From an uncultured Clostridia bacterium (GTDB lineage: Bacteria > Bacillota > Clostridia > Christensenellales > CAG-314): 64,000 nucleotides of DNA. Position 1 is the first letter of the stretch, and every line of letters begins with the position of its first letter. Under the pieces are notes generated by a model that saw nothing but the letters and a program-made list of their open reading frames with translations, was not told the origin of the DNA and made no database searches. Position numbers and translations under genes: made by a program. Location: NCBI GenBank assembly GCA_947625115.1, contig CANQND010000006.1, positions 72 through 64,071 of the forward strand, read 5' to 3'. Positions 36,586 through 45,433 of the stretch are shown here, in pieces.

Positions 36586-36661
36586 CGAGGTGTAGCGCAG
36601 TTGGTAGCGCGCTTGGTTCGGGACCAAGAGGCCGCTGGTTCGAGTCCAGTCACTTCGACCA
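36586..36661 (+). tRNA. tRNA-Pro (anticodon CGG), CCA encoded
   Basis: Manual cloverleaf. Acceptor CGAGGTG/CACTTCG (one G.U). D-arm GCGC-AGTTGGTA-GCGC. Anticodon arm CTTGG-TTCGGGA-CCAAG. T-arm GCTGG-TTCGAGT-CCAGT. Discriminator A plus CCA. Confidence 0.9.
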
Positions 36662-36882: not shown

Positions 36883-37111
36883 TTGCGCATTCGGCTACCA
36901 ACTGCACACTTTGCAGATTGCTTTCACGCCGAATGTACTTACTTCGACTCCTCTTCGTTCAAACTTATTTCAAAAAAATTAGACTTTAAGGCTGTATTCC
37001 GTAGGGAATCAAAAAACAAAATTTTGGGCAGAATACACTTGGGCCGAGTCAATTGACGCTGACTTCGATTGAAGTCCTGCATTTTTTTCAAGAGCTCGGG
37101 TTTAGCCATAA

Positions 37112-38413
37112 TCAAACAAGTGTATATTTGTCTTTTCGGACATTAAATGCTTCTTTGCCGCCCTCAAGTATTTCACATATATGTCCTTGAATGCCTTTTT
37201 GATTTAATATTCCATTTCTTATTGATCCGTCATTATTTTTTATTATACTATTGTTTTCAATCGATCCAGACCGATACTCAAATCGATAAATTTCGTTAGG
37301 ACTGTTTGCGCCCCTTTGATTAGCTACTATAATTTCTTCAGAGTCCGATCCTAAAACGATATTGGCATTATGCGTGACAATTATGATTTGTCTATCATGT
37401 TTTTTTTGTCTTAGAAAGTCAACCAGTTCATAATAGATTGAACGATTGTCTAAGTCATCTTCCGGTTGATCAATTAGTATAGGACAATCAGAATTTGCTA
37501 AGTTAATAAGCAGTTTCAATAACACTAATGCTTTTTTACCAGGAGACATGGTTTGAATCTTAGGGTTAAAAACAATAGGTGCAGGAGAAAATCTTTCATC
37601 GCTAATCGTAATTTTATCTATTACGTTATAGTCTCTTTTTCTCTCAGGGTAATTATCACAAATTTTAACCCGCTCTTTAGGTTCATATACAATTTGTTTT
37701 AGCCCTTCAAAAGTACAGTCTGCCTTTATCCAACAATATTTATTATTGTTTGGTGCGAAAATGTCAGAGTTTTTATGCGCATCACAGCCATGAACACATG
37801 GTTTTAATCGACCATATTTATGGATTACCTGTTCTTTTGATAGGGGCCCTTCTCCAAGAAAGTATTTAATTGTACTTTCTGTAGCGGAAAAAATTATATC
37901 TGCAAAGTAATTCAAATCGTCTCTGATAACTGTCAGATCAGAATTTGCGTTAGGACGAGAGGGATTACCTATCCCCGAAGTGCCATCGTTTGAACTACTT
38001 GATACAGCAACAATGACATTATCTCTTAAGTCTTTATCATCATCTAATATTTGTTTAAGATTTGATAAGTCTACAACGAACTGGTCAATGCCTTTTTTAT
38101 ATGCCACATCACCTACTAACGATTTATCACATAGTTTCCCGAGCTTATGATCGTCAGCAGGAACTGCTGTTGAATATTCCACCATTAAGACGGGTATTTC
38201 TTCATTACCGCAAACTGAGGTAAGTAAGATGTCTACATCTTTGACTTTTCTAATGCGGTCAATTATAGAATCCGAGCCGACAATTTCACTTCGTAATTTT
38301 TTGGTATAAATGTTTTTGATAGAACATTCTGGAAGAATTTTAGTTATATACTTTTTAAAATCTAATCCCTGCTCCAAAACTTCGGCGTATATTCTCAATT
38401 CAGATATTTTCAT
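37112..38413 (-). CDS. Chimeric 433-aa protein: PD-(D/E)xK-like N-terminus, PHP-domain remnant, ABC/SMC-type ATPase C-lobe without Walker A
   Basis: ATG at 38413 with AAGGAG 8 nt upstream, inside the upstream methyltransferase gene. Motifs: VDILL..VLMVEYS; HGCDAHK plus CWIKADCTFEGLKQIVYEPKERV; SPGKKAL (signature-like); PILIDQPEDDLD (Walker B); IIVTHNANIV. No GxxxxGK[ST] anywhere. Confidence 0.6.
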   Translation of the reverse strand: MKISELRIYAEVLEQGLDFKKYITKILPECSIKNIYTKKLRSEIVGSDSIIDRIRKVKDVDILLTSVCGNEEIPVLMVEYSTAVPADDHKLGKLCDKSLVGDVAYKKGIDQFVVDLSNLKQILDDDKDLRDNVIVAVSSSSNDGTSGIGNPSRPNANSDLTVIRDDLNYFADIIFSATESTIKYFLGEGPLSKEQVIHKYGRLKPCVHGCDAHKNSDIFAPNNNKYCWIKADCTFEGLKQIVYEPKERVKICDNYPERKRDYNVIDKITISDERFSPAPIVFNPKIQTMSPGKKALVLLKLLINLANSDCPILIDQPEDDLDNRSIYYELVDFLRQKKHDRQIIIVTHNANIVLGSDSEEIIVANQRGANSPNEIYRFEYRSGSIENNSIIKNNDGSIRNGILNQKGIQGHICEILEGGKEAFNVRKDKYTLV

Positions 38414-39521
38414 TGTTGTTCTCCTTTTCAAAAACAAGCACATGCTCTCTTTTATCTTTAGTCCGATATGATTGCTGGAAAGAACGTGAAGTGTCATCTA
38501 GATTGGAAAACGAATAATCAACCACTTTCCATTTCAAAGGTGCCAAAATGTTTATTAAGTTTATTTTAGCGTCGTATTTTTCTCCTTGAATCTTGCCATC
38601 TCCCATTATAATAGCTACCCTCCCACGCGGTTTTAAAAGCCTATTGCAGACCTCAAATATCTGCAATAAATCACGGTTAAATTTCTCTTTTGGTAATTTT
38701 AGGCTTGAATATTCACGTCTGGAGCCTATTTCTAATCTCATAGTAGATTTCACATCATATCCAAGCCAAAACATACGATGTTTATGATATAAATAATAAT
38801 CATAGGTGTTAGGATATGGCGGCGATGTTAAGATAAAATCCACACATCCATATGGGGCAAGTCTATCACTCTCTTTTGCATCACATAAATAAGCTTCGTT
38901 TTTTTCTGTCGGACCTCGAAGTTTATTGAATTCAACATAGCACGAAAGTATCATTCTAAATTTTTTTACAAAGGTTTCAGCAACAAACGATGTTGATAAA
39001 TACTTTTTTTCAATTGCCGCATACCTCGTATCGCCCTCTTGATTCGATACGGTGTTTATGATGGAAGATAAAACTAGTTTACAAAATGTACGCTGGTTGT
39101 CGTTGGCCAAGAGAGAAATTCTGCTTTTAATACAACTTAAAACCAAAATAGACTCTTTACAGAACCAATGATCAATTGAAGCGTAAGAATAGGGAATTGT
39201 ATGCGATATGTAGTCTTGATAGTTTTCCGTAAAATCGACAACAAAATTATTTAAGGCGACGATATCGTCATCGTTCATAGACAAAAGTTTAAAGTTAGAT
39301 ATAAGAATCGCTATTGGATTAACGTCTGTTCCAAATCCTCTGCGATGCAATACGCTCGTAGCCAATAGCGTGGTGCCCGAACCAAGAAAAGGATCAAAAA
39401 CGAGATCATTTTCTTGGGTGTATTTTTCTATGTATTTAATTGCCGTACCCACGGGAAACTTTGCGGGATACGGATGAATTCTATCGATTTTTCGAAGTAA
39501 ATCCATATCAAAACAAGTCAT
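38400..39521 (-). CDS. SPPY-motif DNA amino-methyltransferase (N4-C or N6-A), motif I upstream of motif IV
   Basis: HPYPAKFP...VFDPFLGSGTTLLA...GTDVNPIA, then DFILTSPPYPNTYDYY. ATGA overlap with the upstream methyltransferase. Confidence 0.8.
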   Translation of the reverse strand: MTCFDMDLLRKIDRIHPYPAKFPVGTAIKYIEKYTQENDLVFDPFLGSGTTLLATSVLHRRGFGTDVNPIAILISNFKLLSMNDDDIVALNNFVVDFTENYQDYISHTIPYSYASIDHWFCKESILVLSCIKSRISLLANDNQRTFCKLVLSSIINTVSNQEGDTRYAAIEKKYLSTSFVAETFVKKFRMILSCYVEFNKLRGPTEKNEAYLCDAKESDRLAPYGCVDFILTSPPYPNTYDYYLYHKHRMFWLGYDVKSTMRLEIGSRREYSSLKLPKEKFNRDLLQIFEVCNRLLKPRGRVAIIMGDGKIQGEKYDAKINLINILAPLKWKVVDYSFSNLDDTSRSFQQSYRTKDKREHVLVFEKENNNENI

Positions 39522-40390
39522 TTGGCTCTCCGCATAATTACTAAATATGAATGGTTTTGATTAACATAAAAAACAGAGGGATAGCCTAAAAGGACAAGCG
39601 AGCGTTGCTCGTTCTGATCCCAAATAATTAAATCATGATAAACAAAACCCGCGTTTGACCCACATTCCGCAATCGCAGAATGCAAATCCACATAAGGAAT
39701 GTTGTTTTTTATATCACGAAAATCTTTCGCAACCCAAACGTTATATCCACCCGGTTTGGTTTTAGTATACAATTTTCTCATGATGCGTAAAACTTTTTCT
39801 TTATACTCTTCAAGTGGCATATTCCCTAAATCATTTTCATTGTTTGAATATATTTTGGTTGTCGCATTATTTTCAGTAACAAACGCCGAGTTTTTGTGCC
39901 GATTTGTTCTGTCATCTACAACCTTATGTATAAGGTCGGCATAAGGCGGCGATGTTAGCGTTAATTGTATAGAATCATTCGGCACTATATCTAATAACAT
40001 TTCACAGTCGCCATTATAAATTTGAAATGAAGTGGTACTCAAAAGGTTAAGTGAATTTTGAACTGCCGCCTGCGCAATTGTGAAGTATTCTTTTGATAAT
40101 TCTATTCCGATGCCAAATCTATTATTTTTTAAAGCAGAAATCAAGGTGGTACCTGTACCCAAAAAAGGGTCCAACACACAATCGCCTTGTTTTGAATACA
40201 TCGAAATTACTCGGTCACACAATTTTTCAGGATAAGTGGCACCGTGCAATAAATGTTGACTTTTCCTCGCAGATGAAACATCATTCCATACACTTCGGCT
40301 ATTTTGAGTCCATTCACGTGCCGTCATTCCATTAAAAGTTTTTGCTCGCTGTTCAATCTCTTTTTTAGTTGTTGTTTCTTTCTGTTCCAT
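39518..40390 (-). CDS. SPPY-motif DNA amino-methyltransferase (N4-C or N6-A), motif I upstream of motif IV
   Basis: HGATYPEKL...VLDPFLGTGTTLISA, then LTLTSPPYADL, and downstream KPGGYNVWV. Confidence 0.8.
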   Translation of the reverse strand: MEQKETTTKKEIEQRAKTFNGMTAREWTQNSRSVWNDVSSARKSQHLLHGATYPEKLCDRVISMYSKQGDCVLDPFLGTGTTLISALKNNRFGIGIELSKEYFTIAQAAVQNSLNLLSTTSFQIYNGDCEMLLDIVPNDSIQLTLTSPPYADLIHKVVDDRTNRHKNSAFVTENNATTKIYSNNENDLGNMPLEEYKEKVLRIMRKLYTKTKPGGYNVWVAKDFRDIKNNIPYVDLHSAIAECGSNAGFVYHDLIIWDQNEQRSLVLLGYPSVFYVNQNHSYLVIMRRAK

Positions 40391-40413
40391 CTAACAAATT
40401 CCTTAATGTAATT

Positions 40414-40442
40414 ATTATACCATATTTTCTTATTTTTTTCAA
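40414..40442 (-). promoter_or_regulatory. Sigma-A-type promoter of the island-2 operon
   Basis: Minus strand: TTGAAA (40442-40437), 17-nt spacer, TATAAT (40419-40414). Confidence 0.55.
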
Positions 40443-40654
40443 CGGTGTTTAAGTCAGTCCTCAAATTTTTTTATGTTTACTTCCAACGAGCGTGAAACTT
40501 GCTTATTGACAAACGAGAGCACGTTGTAGCACTTTCCTTATCCTGCTTCCTCACTGTGGCCGATTTGCCCAGGTCAAAAAATAATAAAACTTTCGATTTA
40601 GTGGATACGAGTTGGCCCAACAATCATCCACTTGTGTGAAATGATGTTGAACGG

Positions 40655-40681
40655 CGGCAAAAAGCATTGATTTTGTGCTAA
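40655..40681 (+). repeat. 27-bp direct repeat, copy 1
   Basis: cggcaaaaagcattgattttgtgctaa, identical to 41542-41568. Confidence 0.95.
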
Positions 40682-40788
40682 GAACACCTTTTCCTATTAC
40701 CGAAAAATATATTTAGAGATATAAAAACGGAGCTGTTGCTTTTGGTAAGAATATCTCTGAAATTTTTGAAAAATGTTGTTAAAAACAG

Positions 40789-40817
40789 TTGACTGCCATT
40801 AGGCACTATGATAGAAT
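40789..40817 (+). promoter_or_regulatory. Sigma-A-type promoter of the 40940 ORF
   Basis: TTGACT (40789-40794), 17-nt spacer, TAGAAT (40812-40817). Confidence 0.55.
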
Positions 40818-40939
40818 TGCGTTGCATTGAAAAACTATGTGCGATGGAGATACTATTGTATCTCTTTTTTTAATGCAAAAATGCAATCTCGGCATAAATG
40901 CGCCAAGAAATATTGTCCCAAAATCAGGAGGAAATAAAT

Positions 40940-41344
40940 ATGGAAGGACAAGGAAAAACAGACAGACACCGAAGTGCGGCGGCAATCAAAACACTAAAAA
41001 CTACCGCAATGATATTGTTCATTGCTTTTGTGGCGGTGGCGTTTATTTACGTCGTCAACGGGTTGTTTAAAGTACCGAGCGTAAACTTTACGTATACGGC
41101 AAGCAGATTGAGCAACGTAAACAACATAAGGCGACAAGCAGATAATACGTTCGCGTGGGATTCCGTCAAACACGCCACATACTACGTTGTGGAAGTAAAC
41201 GGAACGCAATTTACCGTGAATGAATGCCTTTGGCATTGCCCCGACAAAATGAATGTAGAATTCATTCGCGTAAAAGCGGTTGACTCTTCGGGTTGGTACG
41301 GCGAATCCGATTGGACTTACTACGACGGAAGTTCATACAATTGA
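40940..41344 (+). CDS. Single-pass membrane-anchored protein with a small beta-rich (FN3-like) ectodomain
   Basis: ATG at 40940 after AGGAGG. Transmembrane segment AMILFIAFVAVAFIYVV. FAWDSVKHATYYVVEVNG...IRVKAVD pattern. Confidence 0.6.
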   Translation: MEGQGKTDRHRSAAAIKTLKTTAMILFIAFVAVAFIYVVNGLFKVPSVNFTYTASRLSNVNNIRRQADNTFAWDSVKHATYYVVEVNGTQFTVNECLWHCPDKMNVEFIRVKAVDSSGWYGESDWTYYDGSSYN

Positions 41345-41381: not shown

Positions 41382-41541
41382 TTTTGTAATCTTACTATGC
41401 AACAGACTGTTTTTCAAAATGCCGCTTAGATGGTAGTACAATATTGCACCCACGACCTGCTTGCCCCGCCGCGGTGCGGGCGACGAGTTTTTGCTTGAAA
41501 AGGCGTTCGACATATTGTTAAACGCAAGGCGCAAAACACGA

Positions 41542-41568
41542 CGGCAAAAAGCATTGATTTTGTGCTAA
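41542..41568 (+). repeat. 27-bp direct repeat, copy 2
   Basis: Identical to 40655-40681. Contains the -35 element of the next promoter. Confidence 0.95.
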
Positions 41569-41582
41569 AAAGGTGTTATACT
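41554..41582 (+). promoter_or_regulatory. Sigma-A-type promoter of the 41617 ORF
   Basis: TTGATT (41554-41559), 17-nt spacer, TATACT (41577-41582). Confidence 0.55.
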
Positions 41583-41616
41583 GTTGCCGAAATATTGGGC
41601 AAGGAGAACGGTAAAA

Positions 41617-42484: not shown

Positions 42485-44458
42485 ATGGCAAAAAAAATTA
42501 CTATCGAATTTGACGGAAAGTGGATACTCGAACACCGCGGAGATGAACGTCTGCCCGTGGACAGACTGCGCGACGAATTTGCCGCAAAAAACTTTACTGT
42601 GGAAAGCTACTCCTTTACCACGCTGTGTCTGGTAACGGCGGCAGGGCAGGCAGCCGAACAAGCCGAAGAGGTTGTGCGTTCGGTGATAGAAAGTTTGTAC
42701 CCCGACGAGAACCTTTCGGGCGTGTTTAGCGTTAGCACCGACGAAAATTCCGACGACTTGTTTTCCGAAAAAACGGCTACCGCAACCCAAACTGCGGAAG
42801 CCCCCAAGAAAGCTACGGCAACCGAAGCGGACGGCGTGTTGGCAAAGGTGCAAAAACTTACGGGCGCGGCGGAATTTAAGCAATTGATAGGCGAAATATT
42901 GGCGGTTGCCCCGCAAATTAACAAACAAAACGCACAACGGCTGTTTTACAACCGCAGTTATCTGTTTTCTATCGGGGACGGTTGCGGGCTTAGCACCTAC
43001 CTCGAACTGCTTGCGCAAGCCGTTGCGCAAACGGGTTTGCGCCGTATGCACCCGCGCCCCGTTATCGAAGAGCGACTTGGACCGTACAAAGAAAGTATGG
43101 AACCGTTTGAAGAAGTGTTGAAAACTTTGCAAAACGGCGACAGCGACCGCGTACGCGTGCTGTGCATAGACATAAACGAGTGGCTCAACAAAACGGGTAC
43201 GCAATATTTCAGACTGTTTTTGCGCGCGATAGAAAAATCTGCGGAAGAGTTTATCGTGGTGTTCCGCGTGGCGTTTTTGGATAAGGCGGTGCTGAGCGAC
43301 CTCGGATATTCTCTGAACGATCAGTTGAGCGTAAAAACCATATCTTTCCCGCCGTTCAGCAGCGAAGAACTGCGCGATTGCGCGCAACGGGATCTTGCCG
43401 AATACGGCTACGAGATGTCGCCGAAAGGGTGGGCGTTTTTCCAACAACGCCTGACGGAAGAAAAGAGCGACGGCAAGTTTTACGGTTTGAGTACCGTCAA
43501 AAAGGTGGTAAGAGAGCTTGTCTACAACAAAATGCTTTCCAACGTGCGCCGCAACAGCGACGACAAAGTTATTTCCGCAAGCGAGGCGAAATCTCTTTGC
43601 CGAGTGAAGCCCGACCAACTTTCCGGCGAGGAACAGCTCAACAAACTTGTGGGCAACGAAGAAGTAAAAAAGAAGATAAACGAAATTTTGGCGCAAATAG
43701 AGCTTGCAATGAGCAACGAATCGGAAGAACGCCCCTGTATCCATATGAGATTTGTGGGTAACCCGGGAACGGGCAAAACCACCGTGGCGCGGATATTGGG
43801 AAAAATTCTCAAAGAAAGGGGCGTACTGCGCGTAGGCAATTTCTACGAGTACGCGGGGCGCGACTTTTGCGGACGTTACATAGGCGAAACCGCTCCGAAA
43901 ACGGCAAGCATTTGCCGCGACGCCTACGGCTCGGTGCTGTTCATCGACGAGGCGTACTCGCTCTACCGCGGCGACGGCAACGACAGAGATTTCGGCAGGG
44001 AAGCCTTGGACACGTTGATCGCGGAAATGGAAAACCATCGCAACGATTTCGTTGTTATTATGGCGGGCTACACCGACGATATGGACAAGTTGATGAAAGG
44101 CAACCACGGCTTGGCAAGCAGAATGCCCTACACTATCGAGTTCCCCAACTTTACGCGCGATCAACTTTATATGATATTTGAATCGCTGGTAAAAACGCGC
44201 TTCAAGTACGACGACGACTTGTTGGAAAGAGCGAAAAACTTCTTTACCGCTTTGCCCAACGACGTGATAAACGCAAAAGAATTCAGCAATGCGCGCTTTG
44301 TGCGCAACTTGTTTGAACGCACTTGGGCTAAGGCGGCTATGCGCTGTCAGCTTGCCCGCGCAAAGGACGTGGTGTTGACTAAGGACGACTTCGAGCGCGC
44401 CTGCGGCGAAAAGGAGTTTGCCCTCAGCGTCCACCGCAAACCTCAAATAGGATTTTAA
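42485..44458 (+). CDS. SpoVK/CbbX-type AAA+ ATPase with a degenerate N-terminal AAA-like module
   Basis: Walker A VGNPGTGKTTVARILG, Walker B VLFIDEAYSL, VIMAGYTDDM. An upstream module shows GDGCGLST and VLCIDINEW at the equivalent positions. Confidence 0.85.
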   Translation: MAKKITIEFDGKWILEHRGDERLPVDRLRDEFAAKNFTVESYSFTTLCLVTAAGQAAEQAEEVVRSVIESLYPDENLSGVFSVSTDENSDDLFSEKTATATQTAEAPKKATATEADGVLAKVQKLTGAAEFKQLIGEILAVAPQINKQNAQRLFYNRSYLFSIGDGCGLSTYLELLAQAVAQTGLRRMHPRPVIEERLGPYKESMEPFEEVLKTLQNGDSDRVRVLCIDINEWLNKTGTQYFRLFLRAIEKSAEEFIVVFRVAFLDKAVLSDLGYSLNDQLSVKTISFPPFSSEELRDCAQRDLAEYGYEMSPKGWAFFQQRLTEEKSDGKFYGLSTVKKVVRELVYNKMLSNVRRNSDDKVISASEAKSLCRVKPDQLSGEEQLNKLVGNEEVKKKINEILAQIELAMSNESEERPCIHMRFVGNPGTGKTTVARILGKILKERGVLRVGNFYEYAGRDFCGRYIGETAPKTASICRDAYGSVLFIDEAYSLYRGDGNDRDFGREALDTLIAEMENHRNDFVVIMAGYTDDMDKLMKGNHGLASRMPYTIEFPNFTRDQLYMIFESLVKTRFKYDDDLLERAKNFFTALPNDVINAKEFSNARFVRNLFERTWAKAAMRCQLARAKDVVLTKDDFERACGEKEFALSVHRKPQIGF

Positions 44459-44477
44459 CAAAAAAGGAGATAACTCT

Positions 44478-44948
44478 ATGGCAAATGACTTGAAACAGGC
44501 AAAGACGGCGTTTGACACCCTTTGCCAAATGATGGACGAAAAGAATTGGAAGTACGACAAAGATGAAGAAAAGCTAACCATCGAAACCGTTGCGCAAGGC
44601 GACGACCTGCCCATTTCTCTCCGCGTAATAGTAGACGCGGACAGACAATTGGTGTTGCTCTTGTCCGAAATGCCGTACAACATCGCGGCGGACAAGCGCG
44701 ACGCTATCGCAATTGCGGTAAGCTCCGCCAACTACGGTATGGTAGACGGCAATTTCGACTTCGACTACACCACGGGTAAAATTTTGTTCAGGCTTACTTC
44801 GAGCTATATGAACAGCTTGGTGGGCAAAGAAATGTTTGAATATATGCTTTTCTGCGCGTGCTACACCATTGACGCCTACAACGACAAATTTCTTGTCGTT
44901 GCCAAACGCGATATGACTGTCGCGGAAATCTTGGAATACGTAAAATAA
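44478..44948 (+). CDS. YbjN-like protein, paralogue 1
   Basis: 156 aa, AAGGAG ribosome-binding site. Alignable with the ORFs at 44960 and 5019. Confidence 0.65.
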   Translation: MANDLKQAKTAFDTLCQMMDEKNWKYDKDEEKLTIETVAQGDDLPISLRVIVDADRQLVLLLSEMPYNIAADKRDAIAIAVSSANYGMVDGNFDFDYTTGKILFRLTSSYMNSLVGKEMFEYMLFCACYTIDAYNDKFLVVAKRDMTVAEILEYVK

Positions 44949-44959
44949 GGAGATAGGAA

Positions 44960-45433
44960 ATGAGCGACGAAAACAAAACCGAAAAAGCCGCGTCTATGTA
45001 CAAAACTCTATGCGACGCACTTGACGAAAAAGAAATGCACTACGACAAAAAACCCGACGACTTGGTGGTAACCTTTGTCCTTTCGGGCGAGGATATACCT
45101 ATGACCGTTGTCGCCGCGATCGACGCGGACAGGCAGTTGGTACGCGTTTTTTCCGCGTTGCCTTTCTGCTTTGCCGAGGACAAACGTCTGGAAGGCGCAA
45201 TTGCAACGTGTCAGGCGAACTACTGCTTGGCGGACGGCAATTTCGACTACAACTACAATGACGGGCGCGTCATCTTCCGACTGACTTCGAGTTACCGCGA
45301 CAGCTTGATTTCCAAAGAGCTGTTTTGGTATATGATAGCCTGCCTCGGTTACACGGTGGACAAGTACAACGACAAATTCCTGTTGATTTCCAAGGGATCC
45401 CTTTCCATCGATGAATTTGTAAAAAGCCTGTAA
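44960..45433 (+). CDS. YbjN-like protein, paralogue 2
   Basis: 157 aa, AAGGAG ribosome-binding site. Shares IDADRQLV, NY.L.DGNFDY.., IFRLTSSY and YNDKFL with 44478. Confidence 0.65.
   Translation: MSDENKTEKAASMYKTLCDALDEKEMHYDKKPDDLVVTFVLSGEDIPMTVVAAIDADRQLVRVFSALPFCFAEDKRLEGAIATCQANYCLADGNFDYNYNDGRVIFRLTSSYRDSLISKELFWYMIACLGYTVDKYNDKFLLISKGSLSIDEFVKSL

Follow-up and report, generated by a model that had tools for sequence, protein, structure and literature searches.

Type IIS restriction-modification systems of the BsmI and Mva1269I kind consist of a monomeric two-site endonuclease and two methyltransferases. The N-terminal active site of BsmI carries the motif PD-X17-E-X12-QR, and both active sites, together with the entire monomer, touch the DNA (PMC11889245). 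A different group of proteins, the TrlF family (NF045780), takes its name from trlF, which belongs to the temperature-restricting locus of Photorhabdus (bioRxiv 10.1101/2020.06.02.129163). Relatives of this family include Spaf_1101 and Ppl, an anti-phage protein encoded by a single gene. Methyltransferases may also be left as orphans after decay of their restriction gene. Here, we analyzed a 433-codon open reading frame (ORF) in 64,000 nucleotides of DNA from an uncultured Clostridia bacterium (contig CANQND010000006.1; this entire stretch is referred to as the window). The ORF joins the start of a BsmI-like endonuclease gene to two separate parts of a TrlF-family gene, directly downstream of two intact methyltransferase genes, and is very probably a nonfunctional fusion remnant that two microhomology-mediated deletions left in a defense island.

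Results

The ORF occupies 38413..37112 on the minus strand and encodes 433 amino acids. A mechanical ORF list gave a longer, 461-amino-acid frame from 38497; this start was rejected on the basis of the family alignment, which places the true start at the ATG at 38413. As originally predicted, an AAGGAG ribosome-binding site, read from the sequence at 38421..38426 on the minus strand and 7 nt 5′ of the ATG, falls within the upstream methyltransferase gene M2 (38400..39521), which the ORF overlaps by 14 nt. The same site and the same 14-nt overlap are found in the intact cassette L012 (junction GAAAAGGAGA...ATGAAAATATCTGAATTGA), and both features appear to be inherited from the ancestral junction between M2 and the restriction gene (R). 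They had initially been taken as evidence of expression; although ancestral, the strong ribosome-binding site and the translational coupling have been retained, and for this reason the 433-codon ORF is probably still translated.

Both upstream genes encode intact N6/N4 DNA methyltransferases and lie on the minus strand. M1 (39518..40390, 290 amino acids; Pfam PF01555, E = 3e-27) has FLGTGT at residue 76 and SPPY at residue 147, and M2 (373 amino acids; PF01555, E = 7e-21; PADLOC MTase_II, E = 2e-48) has FLGSGT at residue 45 and SPPY at residue 233. Each equals its L012 counterpart in length, with amino acid identities of 96.9% for M1 and 91.2% for M2. A consensus scan revealed a promoter-like site 5′ of M1 (TTGAAA-17-TATAAT with an extended TG, 11/12 matches; 40414..40442, minus strand), and from this match we consider it the likely operon promoter. 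Compared with a type II restriction-modification system, the locus is predicted to retain intact methyltransferases and to have no intact endonuclease. M1 and M2 would now be effectively orphan, without a working restriction partner, and probably still methylate both strands of an asymmetric site.

The composition profile shows a GC content of ~0.33 to 0.37 over an island from ~36900 to 40900, compared with ~0.5 in its flanks. As context, a tRNA-Pro (CGG) gene detected with ARAGORN (36586..36661, plus strand) adjoins this low-GC island, and a search for an att-type repeat of the tRNA-Pro end found none.

All of the motifs quoted in the original prediction are present in the 433-amino-acid protein: KDVDILLTSVCGNEEIPVLMVEYS (residues 58 to 81), DDHK (87 to 90), HGCDAHK (208 to 214), YCWIKADCTFEGLKQIVYEPKERV (226 to 249), PIVFNP (279 to 284), SPGKKAL (290 to 296), PILIDQPEDDLD (311 to 322), and IIVTHNANIV (344 to 353). 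These include an ABC signature (MSPGKK, 289 to 294), a Walker B/D-loop (ILIDQPEDDLD, 312 to 322), and an H-loop (THNAN, 347 to 351). The predicted absence of a P-loop was borne out by a motif scan, with zero matches to GxxxxGK[ST] or the relaxed [AG]xxxxGK across the whole protein. The NCBIfam model TrlF_fam_ATP (NF045780, 944 positions) matched the protein with an E value of 3e-92 and 310.8 bits, a score that lies below the curated cutoff of 350 bits only because segments are missing. PADLOC REase_II (PDLC03439) matched residues 4 to 113 (E = 4e-14), and both similarities far exceed chance. A PDB sequence search with the chimera and with the TrlF-family protein P0003 returned only weak SMC, AriA, and ABC C-lobe matches, with no PHP or nuclease match.

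DNA and protein identity show codons 1 to 90 (38144..38413, minus strand) to be the 5′ portion of a gene for a BsmI-like type II restriction endonuclease. Nucleotide identity to the intact M1-M2-R(594 amino acids) cassettes L012, L013, L015, and L016 is 92.4%, and the DNA similarity to these four cassettes begins 5′ of M1 and halts at window position 38145, that is, at codon 90. Residues 1 to 90 share 92% amino acid identity with the full-length endonucleases P0236 and P0246. Along the PADLOC REase_II profile, the chimera covers positions 5 to 109 of 602, compared with positions 5 to 566 for the intact homolog from L011. A full-length endonuclease query returned >110 clusters of 592 to 600 amino acids, and in a library of 1.84 billion proteins the N-terminal module begins proteins of mostly ~530 to 660 amino acids. 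Gene order M1-M2-R was found again in several unrelated settings (L011, L012, L016, L020, and L024).

A small stand-alone N-terminal gene was suggested by a 121-amino-acid query that returned only proteins of 68 to 174 amino acids. This candidate was ruled out by the L011 frame, which runs to ~594 codons past one stop, and by the >110 clusters of ~595 amino acids obtained with the full-length query. Some short ORFs that begin like the endonuclease are frameshift fragments of its gene.

The AlphaFold model of the intact endonuclease (pLDDT 90.3, pTM 0.90) has BsmI (9f38) as its best PDB match (E = 5e-14, probability 1.0). Residues D61, E79, Q92, and R93 are invariant in the family, with spacing identical to that of the BsmI motif, and the second site, D460..E477-x-K479, is likewise invariant. 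The chimera keeps D61 and E79; its positions 92 and 93 lie beyond the fusion junction, which comes right after K90, and are therefore G-K instead of the invariant Q-R, leaving the N-terminal active site D-X17-E-X12-QR incomplete. What remains is about half of the ~170-residue N-terminal (bottom-strand) domain, which lacks Q92-R93, K109, and later strands and is without half of the β-sheet and any DNA-recognition domain. The endonuclease central domain and the C-terminal (top-strand) D460..E477-x-K479 site are also absent. The N-terminus, originally read as a possible new nuclease domain of a compact effector, is instead a truncated BsmI-like N-domain that ends two residues short of Q92-R93.

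The rest of the ORF derives from a TrlF-family PHP-ATPase gene. Codons 91 to 284 (37562..38143, minus strand) correspond to PHP residues 145 to 338 (BLASTP to the L017 TrlF), and codons 285 to 433 plus the stop (37112..37561, minus strand) correspond to the C-terminal ABC/SMC-type lobe (alignment to L017). BLASTP aligned chimera residues 83 to 298 with residues 137 to 354 of the intact 921-amino-acid L017 TrlF at 76%; the PHP segment also gave 77% to P0004 and 78% nucleotide identity to L007, beginning at window position 38147. The C-lobe has 94.6% amino acid identity to L017 TrlF residues 773 to 921 and 97% to P0016. The NCBIfam TrlF match to the chimera falls into two stretches, the best of which spans only model positions 818 to 943, in the C-lobe, compared with an end-to-end match for the intact L017 TrlF (528.9 bits) and a score of 523.8 bits for P0003, also intact.

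TrlF residues 1 to 144 and 339 to 772 are absent from the chimera. As predicted, its PHP segment retains only the last His/Asp motif (HGCDAH, 208 to 213), followed by the linker to PIVFNP; the HxH and other early motifs of intact members (HIH at 15 to 17, ITDY, NIEMR, and NIHF) fall in the missing residues 1 to 144. Walker A (GGKSTGKS at 344 in the L017 TrlF) and IPQ (at 401) both lie inside the deleted residues 339 to 772, with which the coiled coil, the Q-loop, and the N-terminal ATPase lobe were lost. Among the features of TrlF membership, the chimera has the C-terminal signature, Walker B/D-loop, and H-loop, and it lacks a 350-bit score, a full PHP domain, and Walker A. Elsewhere in the window, we found no further endonuclease fragments, none of the missing endonuclease or TrlF parts, and no full-length TrlF gene. 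The Ppl model (NF042955; PADLOC PDLC02208) matched the C-lobe only, with 75.7 bits against a full-length cutoff of 1000 bits; the PADLOC match covers residues 285 to 364 (E = 1.6e-17).

Junction 1 was placed by three-way codon and nucleotide comparison at codon 90 (AAG; 38144..38150, minus strand). With the breakpoint marked by a slash, the sequence is ATCATAAA/ATG in the endonuclease gene, TTCATTAAA/CTT in the TrlF gene, and ATCATAAG/CTC in the window; the microhomology is imperfect, TCAT(T)AA. Junction 2 separates codon 284 from codon 285 (37560..37562, minus strand) and was placed by alignment to L006 and L017. Its 5′ side is CCTAA/TTTG and its 3′ side is GATAA/GATT, with a 3-nt TAA microhomology, such that microhomology at the two junctions amounts to 3 to 7 nt. 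Compared with L006, 1302 nt are missing, and compared with L017, 1305 nt, each an in-frame deletion: L006 positions 1 to 44 match window positions 37603 to 37560 (100%), and L006 positions 1347 to 1822 match window positions 37562 to 37087 (94%).

Identical sequence aside, no match among 5.8 billion clusters spans >64% of the query, and the 90% cluster of the chimera has a single member. It is the sole protein of this architecture among full-length homologs of ~595 and 921 amino acids, the outcome that had been named in advance as pointing to decay. The AlphaFold model of the chimera has a pTM of 0.36 and a mean pLDDT of 59.9; the alignment used for the model leaves residues 1 to 90 uncovered, and low pLDDT there is by itself uninformative.

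The TrlF genes of L007 to L010 carry an independent, out-of-frame middle deletion, and the TrlF gene of L006 and the endonuclease gene of L011 have one in-frame stop each. A second, independent in-frame TrlF derivative without the same Walker A region, P0079 (391 amino acids), consists of a complete PHP domain joined straight to the C-lobe and was found in two samples. Both families have been damaged repeatedly among few relatives, by nonsense mutations, frameshifts, and independent middle deletions, which fits rapid turnover of defense genes.

The order R then TrlF was absent from all retrieved loci. A genome scan for this order found two TrlF loci, neither with a restriction-modification cassette; a viral scan gave one distant match only; and in the endonuclease contexts searched, other genes were found downstream.

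Discussion

We propose that the ancestor would have carried a BsmI-like type IIS cassette of M1, M2, and a ~595-amino-acid single-chain two-site endonuclease, with a gene for a 921-amino-acid TrlF-family PHP-ABC ATPase downstream in the same orientation, an adjacency that we infer. A first deletion would have joined endonuclease codon 90 to TrlF codon 145, destroying the endonuclease as well as the PHP active site. A second would have removed TrlF codons 339 to 772, and with them Walker A, the Q-loop, and the coiled coil. Both would have happened in frame, for which the chance is ~1 in 9; because the frame was kept, the 433-codon ORF would have survived, open across two deletions and equipped with the ribosome-binding site and M2 overlap of the endonuclease gene. 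The product, if made, would be without any complete catalytic center and presumably without function. Several points count against decay: the frame is open throughout in spite of the ~1 in 9 odds, the ribosome-binding site and coupling are kept, P0079 is a second in-frame derivative, the retrieved loci do not contain R followed by TrlF, and substitutions on the window branch give no clear sign of relaxed selection. One of the two readings originally offered, decay of a PHP-ATPase gene through two internal deletions, holds as to decay, but only one deletion (~434 codons) is internal; the other fused two genes and put the first 90 codons of the neighboring restriction endonuclease gene in place of the first 144 PHP codons.

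A remnant of this kind could have gained a new, nonenzymatic role, in which the signature lobe binds and poisons or regulates full-length TrlF-, Ppl-, or SMC-like ATPases and Walker-A-less “mini-TrlF” proteins are a recurring functional form. P0079, as a second in-frame derivative seen in two samples, is consistent with such a role, as is the C-lobe of the window, which is still 95 to 97% identical to intact relatives. However, there are only two unrelated instances, each within one cluster; L007 loses the same region out of frame, as random decay predicts; and the window offers no full-length TrlF gene to regulate. Nor is there a signal of selection after the deletions: on the window branch, the stub and the C-lobe have dN/dS values of 0.20 and 0.15, compared with 0.18 and 0.06 for the methyltransferases, from tiny counts (4 nonsynonymous and 7 synonymous changes in the C-lobe) and on a branch that includes predeletion time. 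We consider this role quite improbable. It is very doubtful that Walker-A-less TrlF derivatives (the 433-amino-acid ORF and P0079) persist as regulators or dominant negatives of SMC/ABC-type defense ATPases; if they did, the start taken from the restriction gene would give methyltransferase-coupled expression.

A functional compact effector, with the nuclease-like N-terminus as the restriction partner of the methyltransferases and the ATPase lobe as a noncatalytic scaffold, seems very unlikely. The frame is open, with a strong ribosome-binding site and coupling to M2, the nuclease residues D61 and E79 are kept, and the window branch shows no obvious rise in dN/dS, on tiny counts and with predeletion time included. 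Yet the stub is roughly half of an N-domain, with Q92-R93, K109, and the later strands gone, and it has neither the central domain nor the C-terminal top-strand site, whereas BsmI contacts DNA with both sites and its whole monomer (PMC11889245). The proposal is not supported because the N-terminus derives from a known enzyme and is no new domain, the ribosome-binding site predates the fusion, and the architecture is unique and confined to one lineage; the pTM of 0.36 also argues against it.

An assembly artifact joining reads of separate genes is extremely improbable: although metagenome assemblies are the source of the window and the intact cassette L012 (ERZ27249383) belongs to the same accession series, the sequence is 100% identical across both junctions in at least five records (ERZ27249483 and ERR10663710 to ERR10663713) from two collections, ENA and Logan, on contigs of up to 72.7 kb, and both junctions lie within one uninterrupted frame.

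For the fusion remnant, the fitting annotation is a fusion pseudogene beside two predicted, probably active orphan methyltransferases of the BsmI-like type IIS family. An open, well-initiated 433-codon frame with defense-like motifs could otherwise be miscalled as a new restriction or defense effector, while both wrecked source genes are of already known kinds. The intact ~595-amino-acid endonucleases form a sizeable, uncharacterized, BsmI-like family with two active sites and no Pfam or NCBIfam model, and this family could interest enzyme hunters seeking nicking-enzyme scaffolds.

Compared with BsmI and Mva1269I, the locus has the same gene order, M1, M2, R, and the intact relatives of its endonuclease segment share the BsmI fold, the unusual N-terminal D-X17-E-X12-QR, and a canonical C-terminal D..ExK, although they are only 12 to 13% identical to BsmI in sequence; the window keeps endonuclease codons 1 to 90 only and is no longer a restriction-modification system. 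Chimera residues 91 to 433 are collinear with TrlF residues 145 to 338 and 773 to 921, the two stretches being 76% and 95% identical to those of an intact member, and the C-lobe also matches the Ppl and Spaf_1101 models. Unlike TrlF, the chimera is without the PHP HxH, D, E, and H motifs, Walker A, the Q-loop, and the coiled coil, and its N-terminus comes from another gene. As in other cases of orphan methyltransferases after restriction-gene decay, M1 and M2 remain intact, with their own promoter-like site, beside a destroyed endonuclease gene; here, however, the dead endonuclease gene is not just truncated or frameshifted but forms an in-frame fusion with another dead defense gene.

Results

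The chimeric ORF (433 aa) occupies window positions 38413..37112 on the minus strand, 7 bases behind an AAGGAG ribosome-binding site (38426..38421, minus strand). The original prediction had described a protein with a nuclease-like N terminus, the last PHP motif only, and an ABC/SMC ATPase C-lobe lacking Walker A, and this observation is confirmed and its details are accurate: all of its quoted peptide strings occur where it placed them, the AAGGAG site lies inside the upstream methyltransferase gene (with which the ORF shares 14 nt), and a motif scan of the full 433 aa found no Walker A under a strict or a relaxed pattern. Homology shows 38413 to be the true start; an ORF list made by mechanical calling prolongs the frame as far as the ATG of 38497 (461 aa, adding window 38414-38497), and automated callers may over-extend this gene. 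The ORF is the final gene of a low-GC stretch (GC about 0.33-0.37 vs about 0.5 in the flanks) adjoined by a tRNA-Pro(CGG). At the upstream edge of this island, a 58-nt direct repeat (81% identity; 40651-40708 and 41538-41595) may be a duplicated promoter/leader region or an insertion scar, and a 148-aa ORF between its copies (40898..41344) has no family match. Window 42485-45433 encodes a 657-aa AAA+ ATPase (for which the identical locus L001 shows AAA and AAA_lid_6) and, 3' of it, a tandem pair of paralogous ORFs, each about 156 aa (44478..44948 and 44960..45433), for which no family match is recorded.

Profile searches identified the two genes 5' of the chimera as N6/N4 methyltransferases. 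The chimera itself matched the NCBIfam model "TrlF family AAA-like ATPase" (944 positions, cut-off 350 bits) strongly yet under threshold (E 3e-92, 310.8 bits), the best stretch being the last 126 model positions only; Spaf_1101 and the anti-phage protein Ppl were weaker NCBIfam matches. Residues 4-113 matched the first 109 of 602 positions of the PADLOC type II restriction endonuclease (REase) profile PDLC03439 (E 4e-14). Recurrence of the 430-aa architecture had been proposed as the mark of a real system; among 5.8 billion protein clusters, no protein besides an identical one covered >64% of the chimera. BLASTP against the cluster-search matches split it into three parts: residues 1-82 had no counterpart in any of them, 83-298 corresponded to residues about 137-355 of longer proteins starting with a PHP HxH motif, and 283-433 corresponded to the C-terminal 150 residues of proteins measuring at least about 750 aa.

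A homologue of the N terminus was found at L011, 3' of two methyltransferases in the same order as in the window; this third gene spans about 594 codons, is interrupted by one in-frame stop, and aligns with PDLC03439 positions 5-566. A full-length REase query found >110 clusters of 592-600 aa, and a profile of the N-terminal module, run against 1.84 billion representatives, found it N-terminally placed in proteins whose lengths are mostly about 530-660 aa. Two full-length REases, P0236 and P0246, share 92% identity with the chimera's first 90 residues. Their loci encode methyltransferases M1 (290 aa) and M2 (373 aa) and endonuclease R (594 or 596 aa), with M2 and R overlapping by 14 nt as in the window, and are 92.4% identical to it in DNA from 5' of M1 to window 38145, codon 90 of the chimera, beyond which there is no similarity. 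Residues 1-90 are the start of the cassette's own restriction gene. The AAGGAG site and start context of the intact cassette are identical to the window's, so the ribosome-binding site and coupling, which the original prediction had noted correctly and read as favoring expression, are a restriction-gene legacy and no sign of selection on the chimera. In the intact cassette L012, the gene after the endonuclease (L012:4111-6030) encodes a 639-aa HATPase_c_3 protein, not TrlF, so the window's R-TrlF adjacency is not the common arrangement.

The ~595-aa endonuclease family (>110 clusters) has no Pfam or NCBIfam model and always lies 3' of two N6/N4 methyltransferases (P0236 and relatives; L012, L016, L020, and L024). 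AlphaFold models P0236 confidently (pLDDT 90.3, pTM 0.90), and the model's significant PDB matches are the four BsmI structures only (best 9f38_A, E 5e-14, probability 1.0, TM 0.53). The type IIS enzyme BsmI is monomeric and has two methyltransferases and two active sites: an N-terminal bottom-strand cutter with the unusual motif PD-X17-E-X12-QR and a C-terminal PD-X17-E-X-K (PMC11889245). Across a 53-sequence family alignment, D61, E79, Q92, and R93 never vary and are spaced exactly as in BsmI's N-terminal motif, and D460, E477, and K479 are likewise invariant; the family models confidently as BsmI-like, with two predicted active sites as in BsmI. The PD-(D/E)xK strand pattern predicted at residues 55-85 was therefore right, D61 and E79 belonging to a BsmI-type site. 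The chimera departs from the restriction gene after K90 and lacks Q92-R93, the invariant K109, the remaining helices and strands (residues 94 to about 170) by which the sheet of the N-domain is completed, and the entire central and C-terminal endonuclease domains.

An intact TrlF relative from a genome scan (L017:9593-12358, uncultured Clostridia MAG, 921 aa) aligns over the full length of the TrlF model (528.9 bits). By BLASTP, chimera residues 83-298 are 76% identical to its residues 137-354 (91-284 corresponding to 145-338) and 285-433 are 95% identical to 773-921; everything after residue 90 derives from a 921-aa TrlF gene. TrlF 1-144, absent from the chimera, carries HIH (15-17), ITDY, NIEMR, and NIHF, which we take to be early PHP-superfamily metal-ligand motifs; of the PHP motifs, only the last survives. 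Also absent is TrlF 339-772, with Walker A GGKSTGKS (344), a Q-loop-like IPQ (401), and a long helical insert. This second deletion is seen against L006, whose bases 1-44 match window 37603-37560 (100%) and bases 1347-1822 match window 37562-37087 (94%); since the flanks match and the middle is absent, the window lacks 1302 nt, or 434 codons. The remaining parts of the REase and TrlF genes were not found elsewhere in the window.

Read by eye (slashes mark junctions), the protein runs ...EYSTAVPADDHK/LGKL... at junction 1 and ...PIVFNP/KIQTMSPGKK... at junction 2, where intact relatives have PIVFNPNLTCFIGGKSTGKS (Walker A); PIVFNP does precede the P-loop in full-length relatives, as proposed. 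In DNA, junction 1 reads ATCATAAA/ATG in the restriction gene, TTCATTAAA/CTT in TrlF, and ATCATAAG/CTC in the window; at junction 2, the TrlF sides CCTAA/T and GATAA/G give CCTAAG. With microhomology of 3-7 nt, we take both to be simple deletions by illegitimate recombination.

The TrlF and REase families both show frequent decay. The closest relative of the PHP part (P0013, 318 aa; L007:10001-11189, also L008, L009, and L010) is itself a broken TrlF, in which an independent out-of-frame deletion joined the PHP end (L007 10934) to the last ~257 nt (10938). A resolvase and an AAA_21/RloB pair precede this broken gene, the context being the same for the intact version in L017. The L006 TrlF has an in-frame stop. 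P0079 (391 aa; L025:2506-3681 and L026:1685-2860, two samples) joins a complete PHP domain (HIH present) in frame to the TrlF C-lobe (..YEPEERVVNVMSPGKK..); like the chimera it has neither Walker A nor the coiled coil, and its TrlF-model score, 370 bits, is over the cut-off. An SbcC/Rad50-like gene lies upstream of it. P0007 (552 aa), whose TrlF PHP and Walker A part runs into a tyrosine-recombinase C terminus (Pfam PF00589, precomputed), looks like a further fusion or truncation. The BsmI-like REase gene, too, is often damaged: that of L011 (8001-9785) has its nonsense codon at codon 158, and many database ORFs matching the REase start (P0121-P0138) are 68-174-aa fragments, some clearly from frameshifts (e.g., P0130, P0136, and P0137). 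Helicobacter himalayensis has one short ORF of this kind, a "hypothetical protein" of 110 aa.

Discussion

The chimera is very probably an unremarkable fusion pseudogene, part of a defence island undergoing decay. The original prediction had offered decay of a PHP-ATPase gene as one of two readings, essentially correctly; what needs amending is the N terminus, which is the stump of the cognate restriction gene. Branch dN/dS against two close relatives was 0.20 for the stub, 0.15 for the C-lobe (only 4 nonsynonymous and 7 synonymous changes), and 0.18 and 0.06 for the methyltransferases, values that fit recent deletions in genes earlier under constraint; the same counts may reflect continued constraint on the chimera. 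All copies of the chimera are identical and hence offer no polymorphism for gauging post-fusion selection. Both deletions would be in frame by chance about 1 time in 9.

The other reading, a compact effector serving as a new restriction partner of both methyltransferases, is not supported: the nuclease part stops at K90, and the rest of the endonuclease is absent. The chimera's AlphaFold model (mean pLDDT 59.9, pTM 0.36; alignment of the TrlF-derived part only) reaches moderate confidence locally, within the PHP remnant and within the C-lobe, and has low confidence near both junctions. Residues 1-90 had no alignment rows, so their low score carries no information. An assembly artefact is very unlikely, given 100% identity over both junctions in at least 5 separate records from two collections (ENA and Logan).

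At present, the locus most likely serves for methylation only. The window's M1 and M2 equal those of the intact cassette in length, with 97% and 91% identity, retain SPPY and FxGxG, and have a near-consensus promoter-like site 5' of M1.

Among known systems, TrlF is named after the Photorhabdus temperature-restricting locus trlR-trlF-trlG (bioRxiv 10.1101/2020.06.02.129163), and Ppl, so named by its NCBIfam model, is a TrlF-related single-gene anti-phage protein. In membership tests, the chimera fell outside TrlF, Ppl, and the BsmI-like endonucleases, and the only features found to agree were its ABC C-lobe motifs and the window's methyltransferases.
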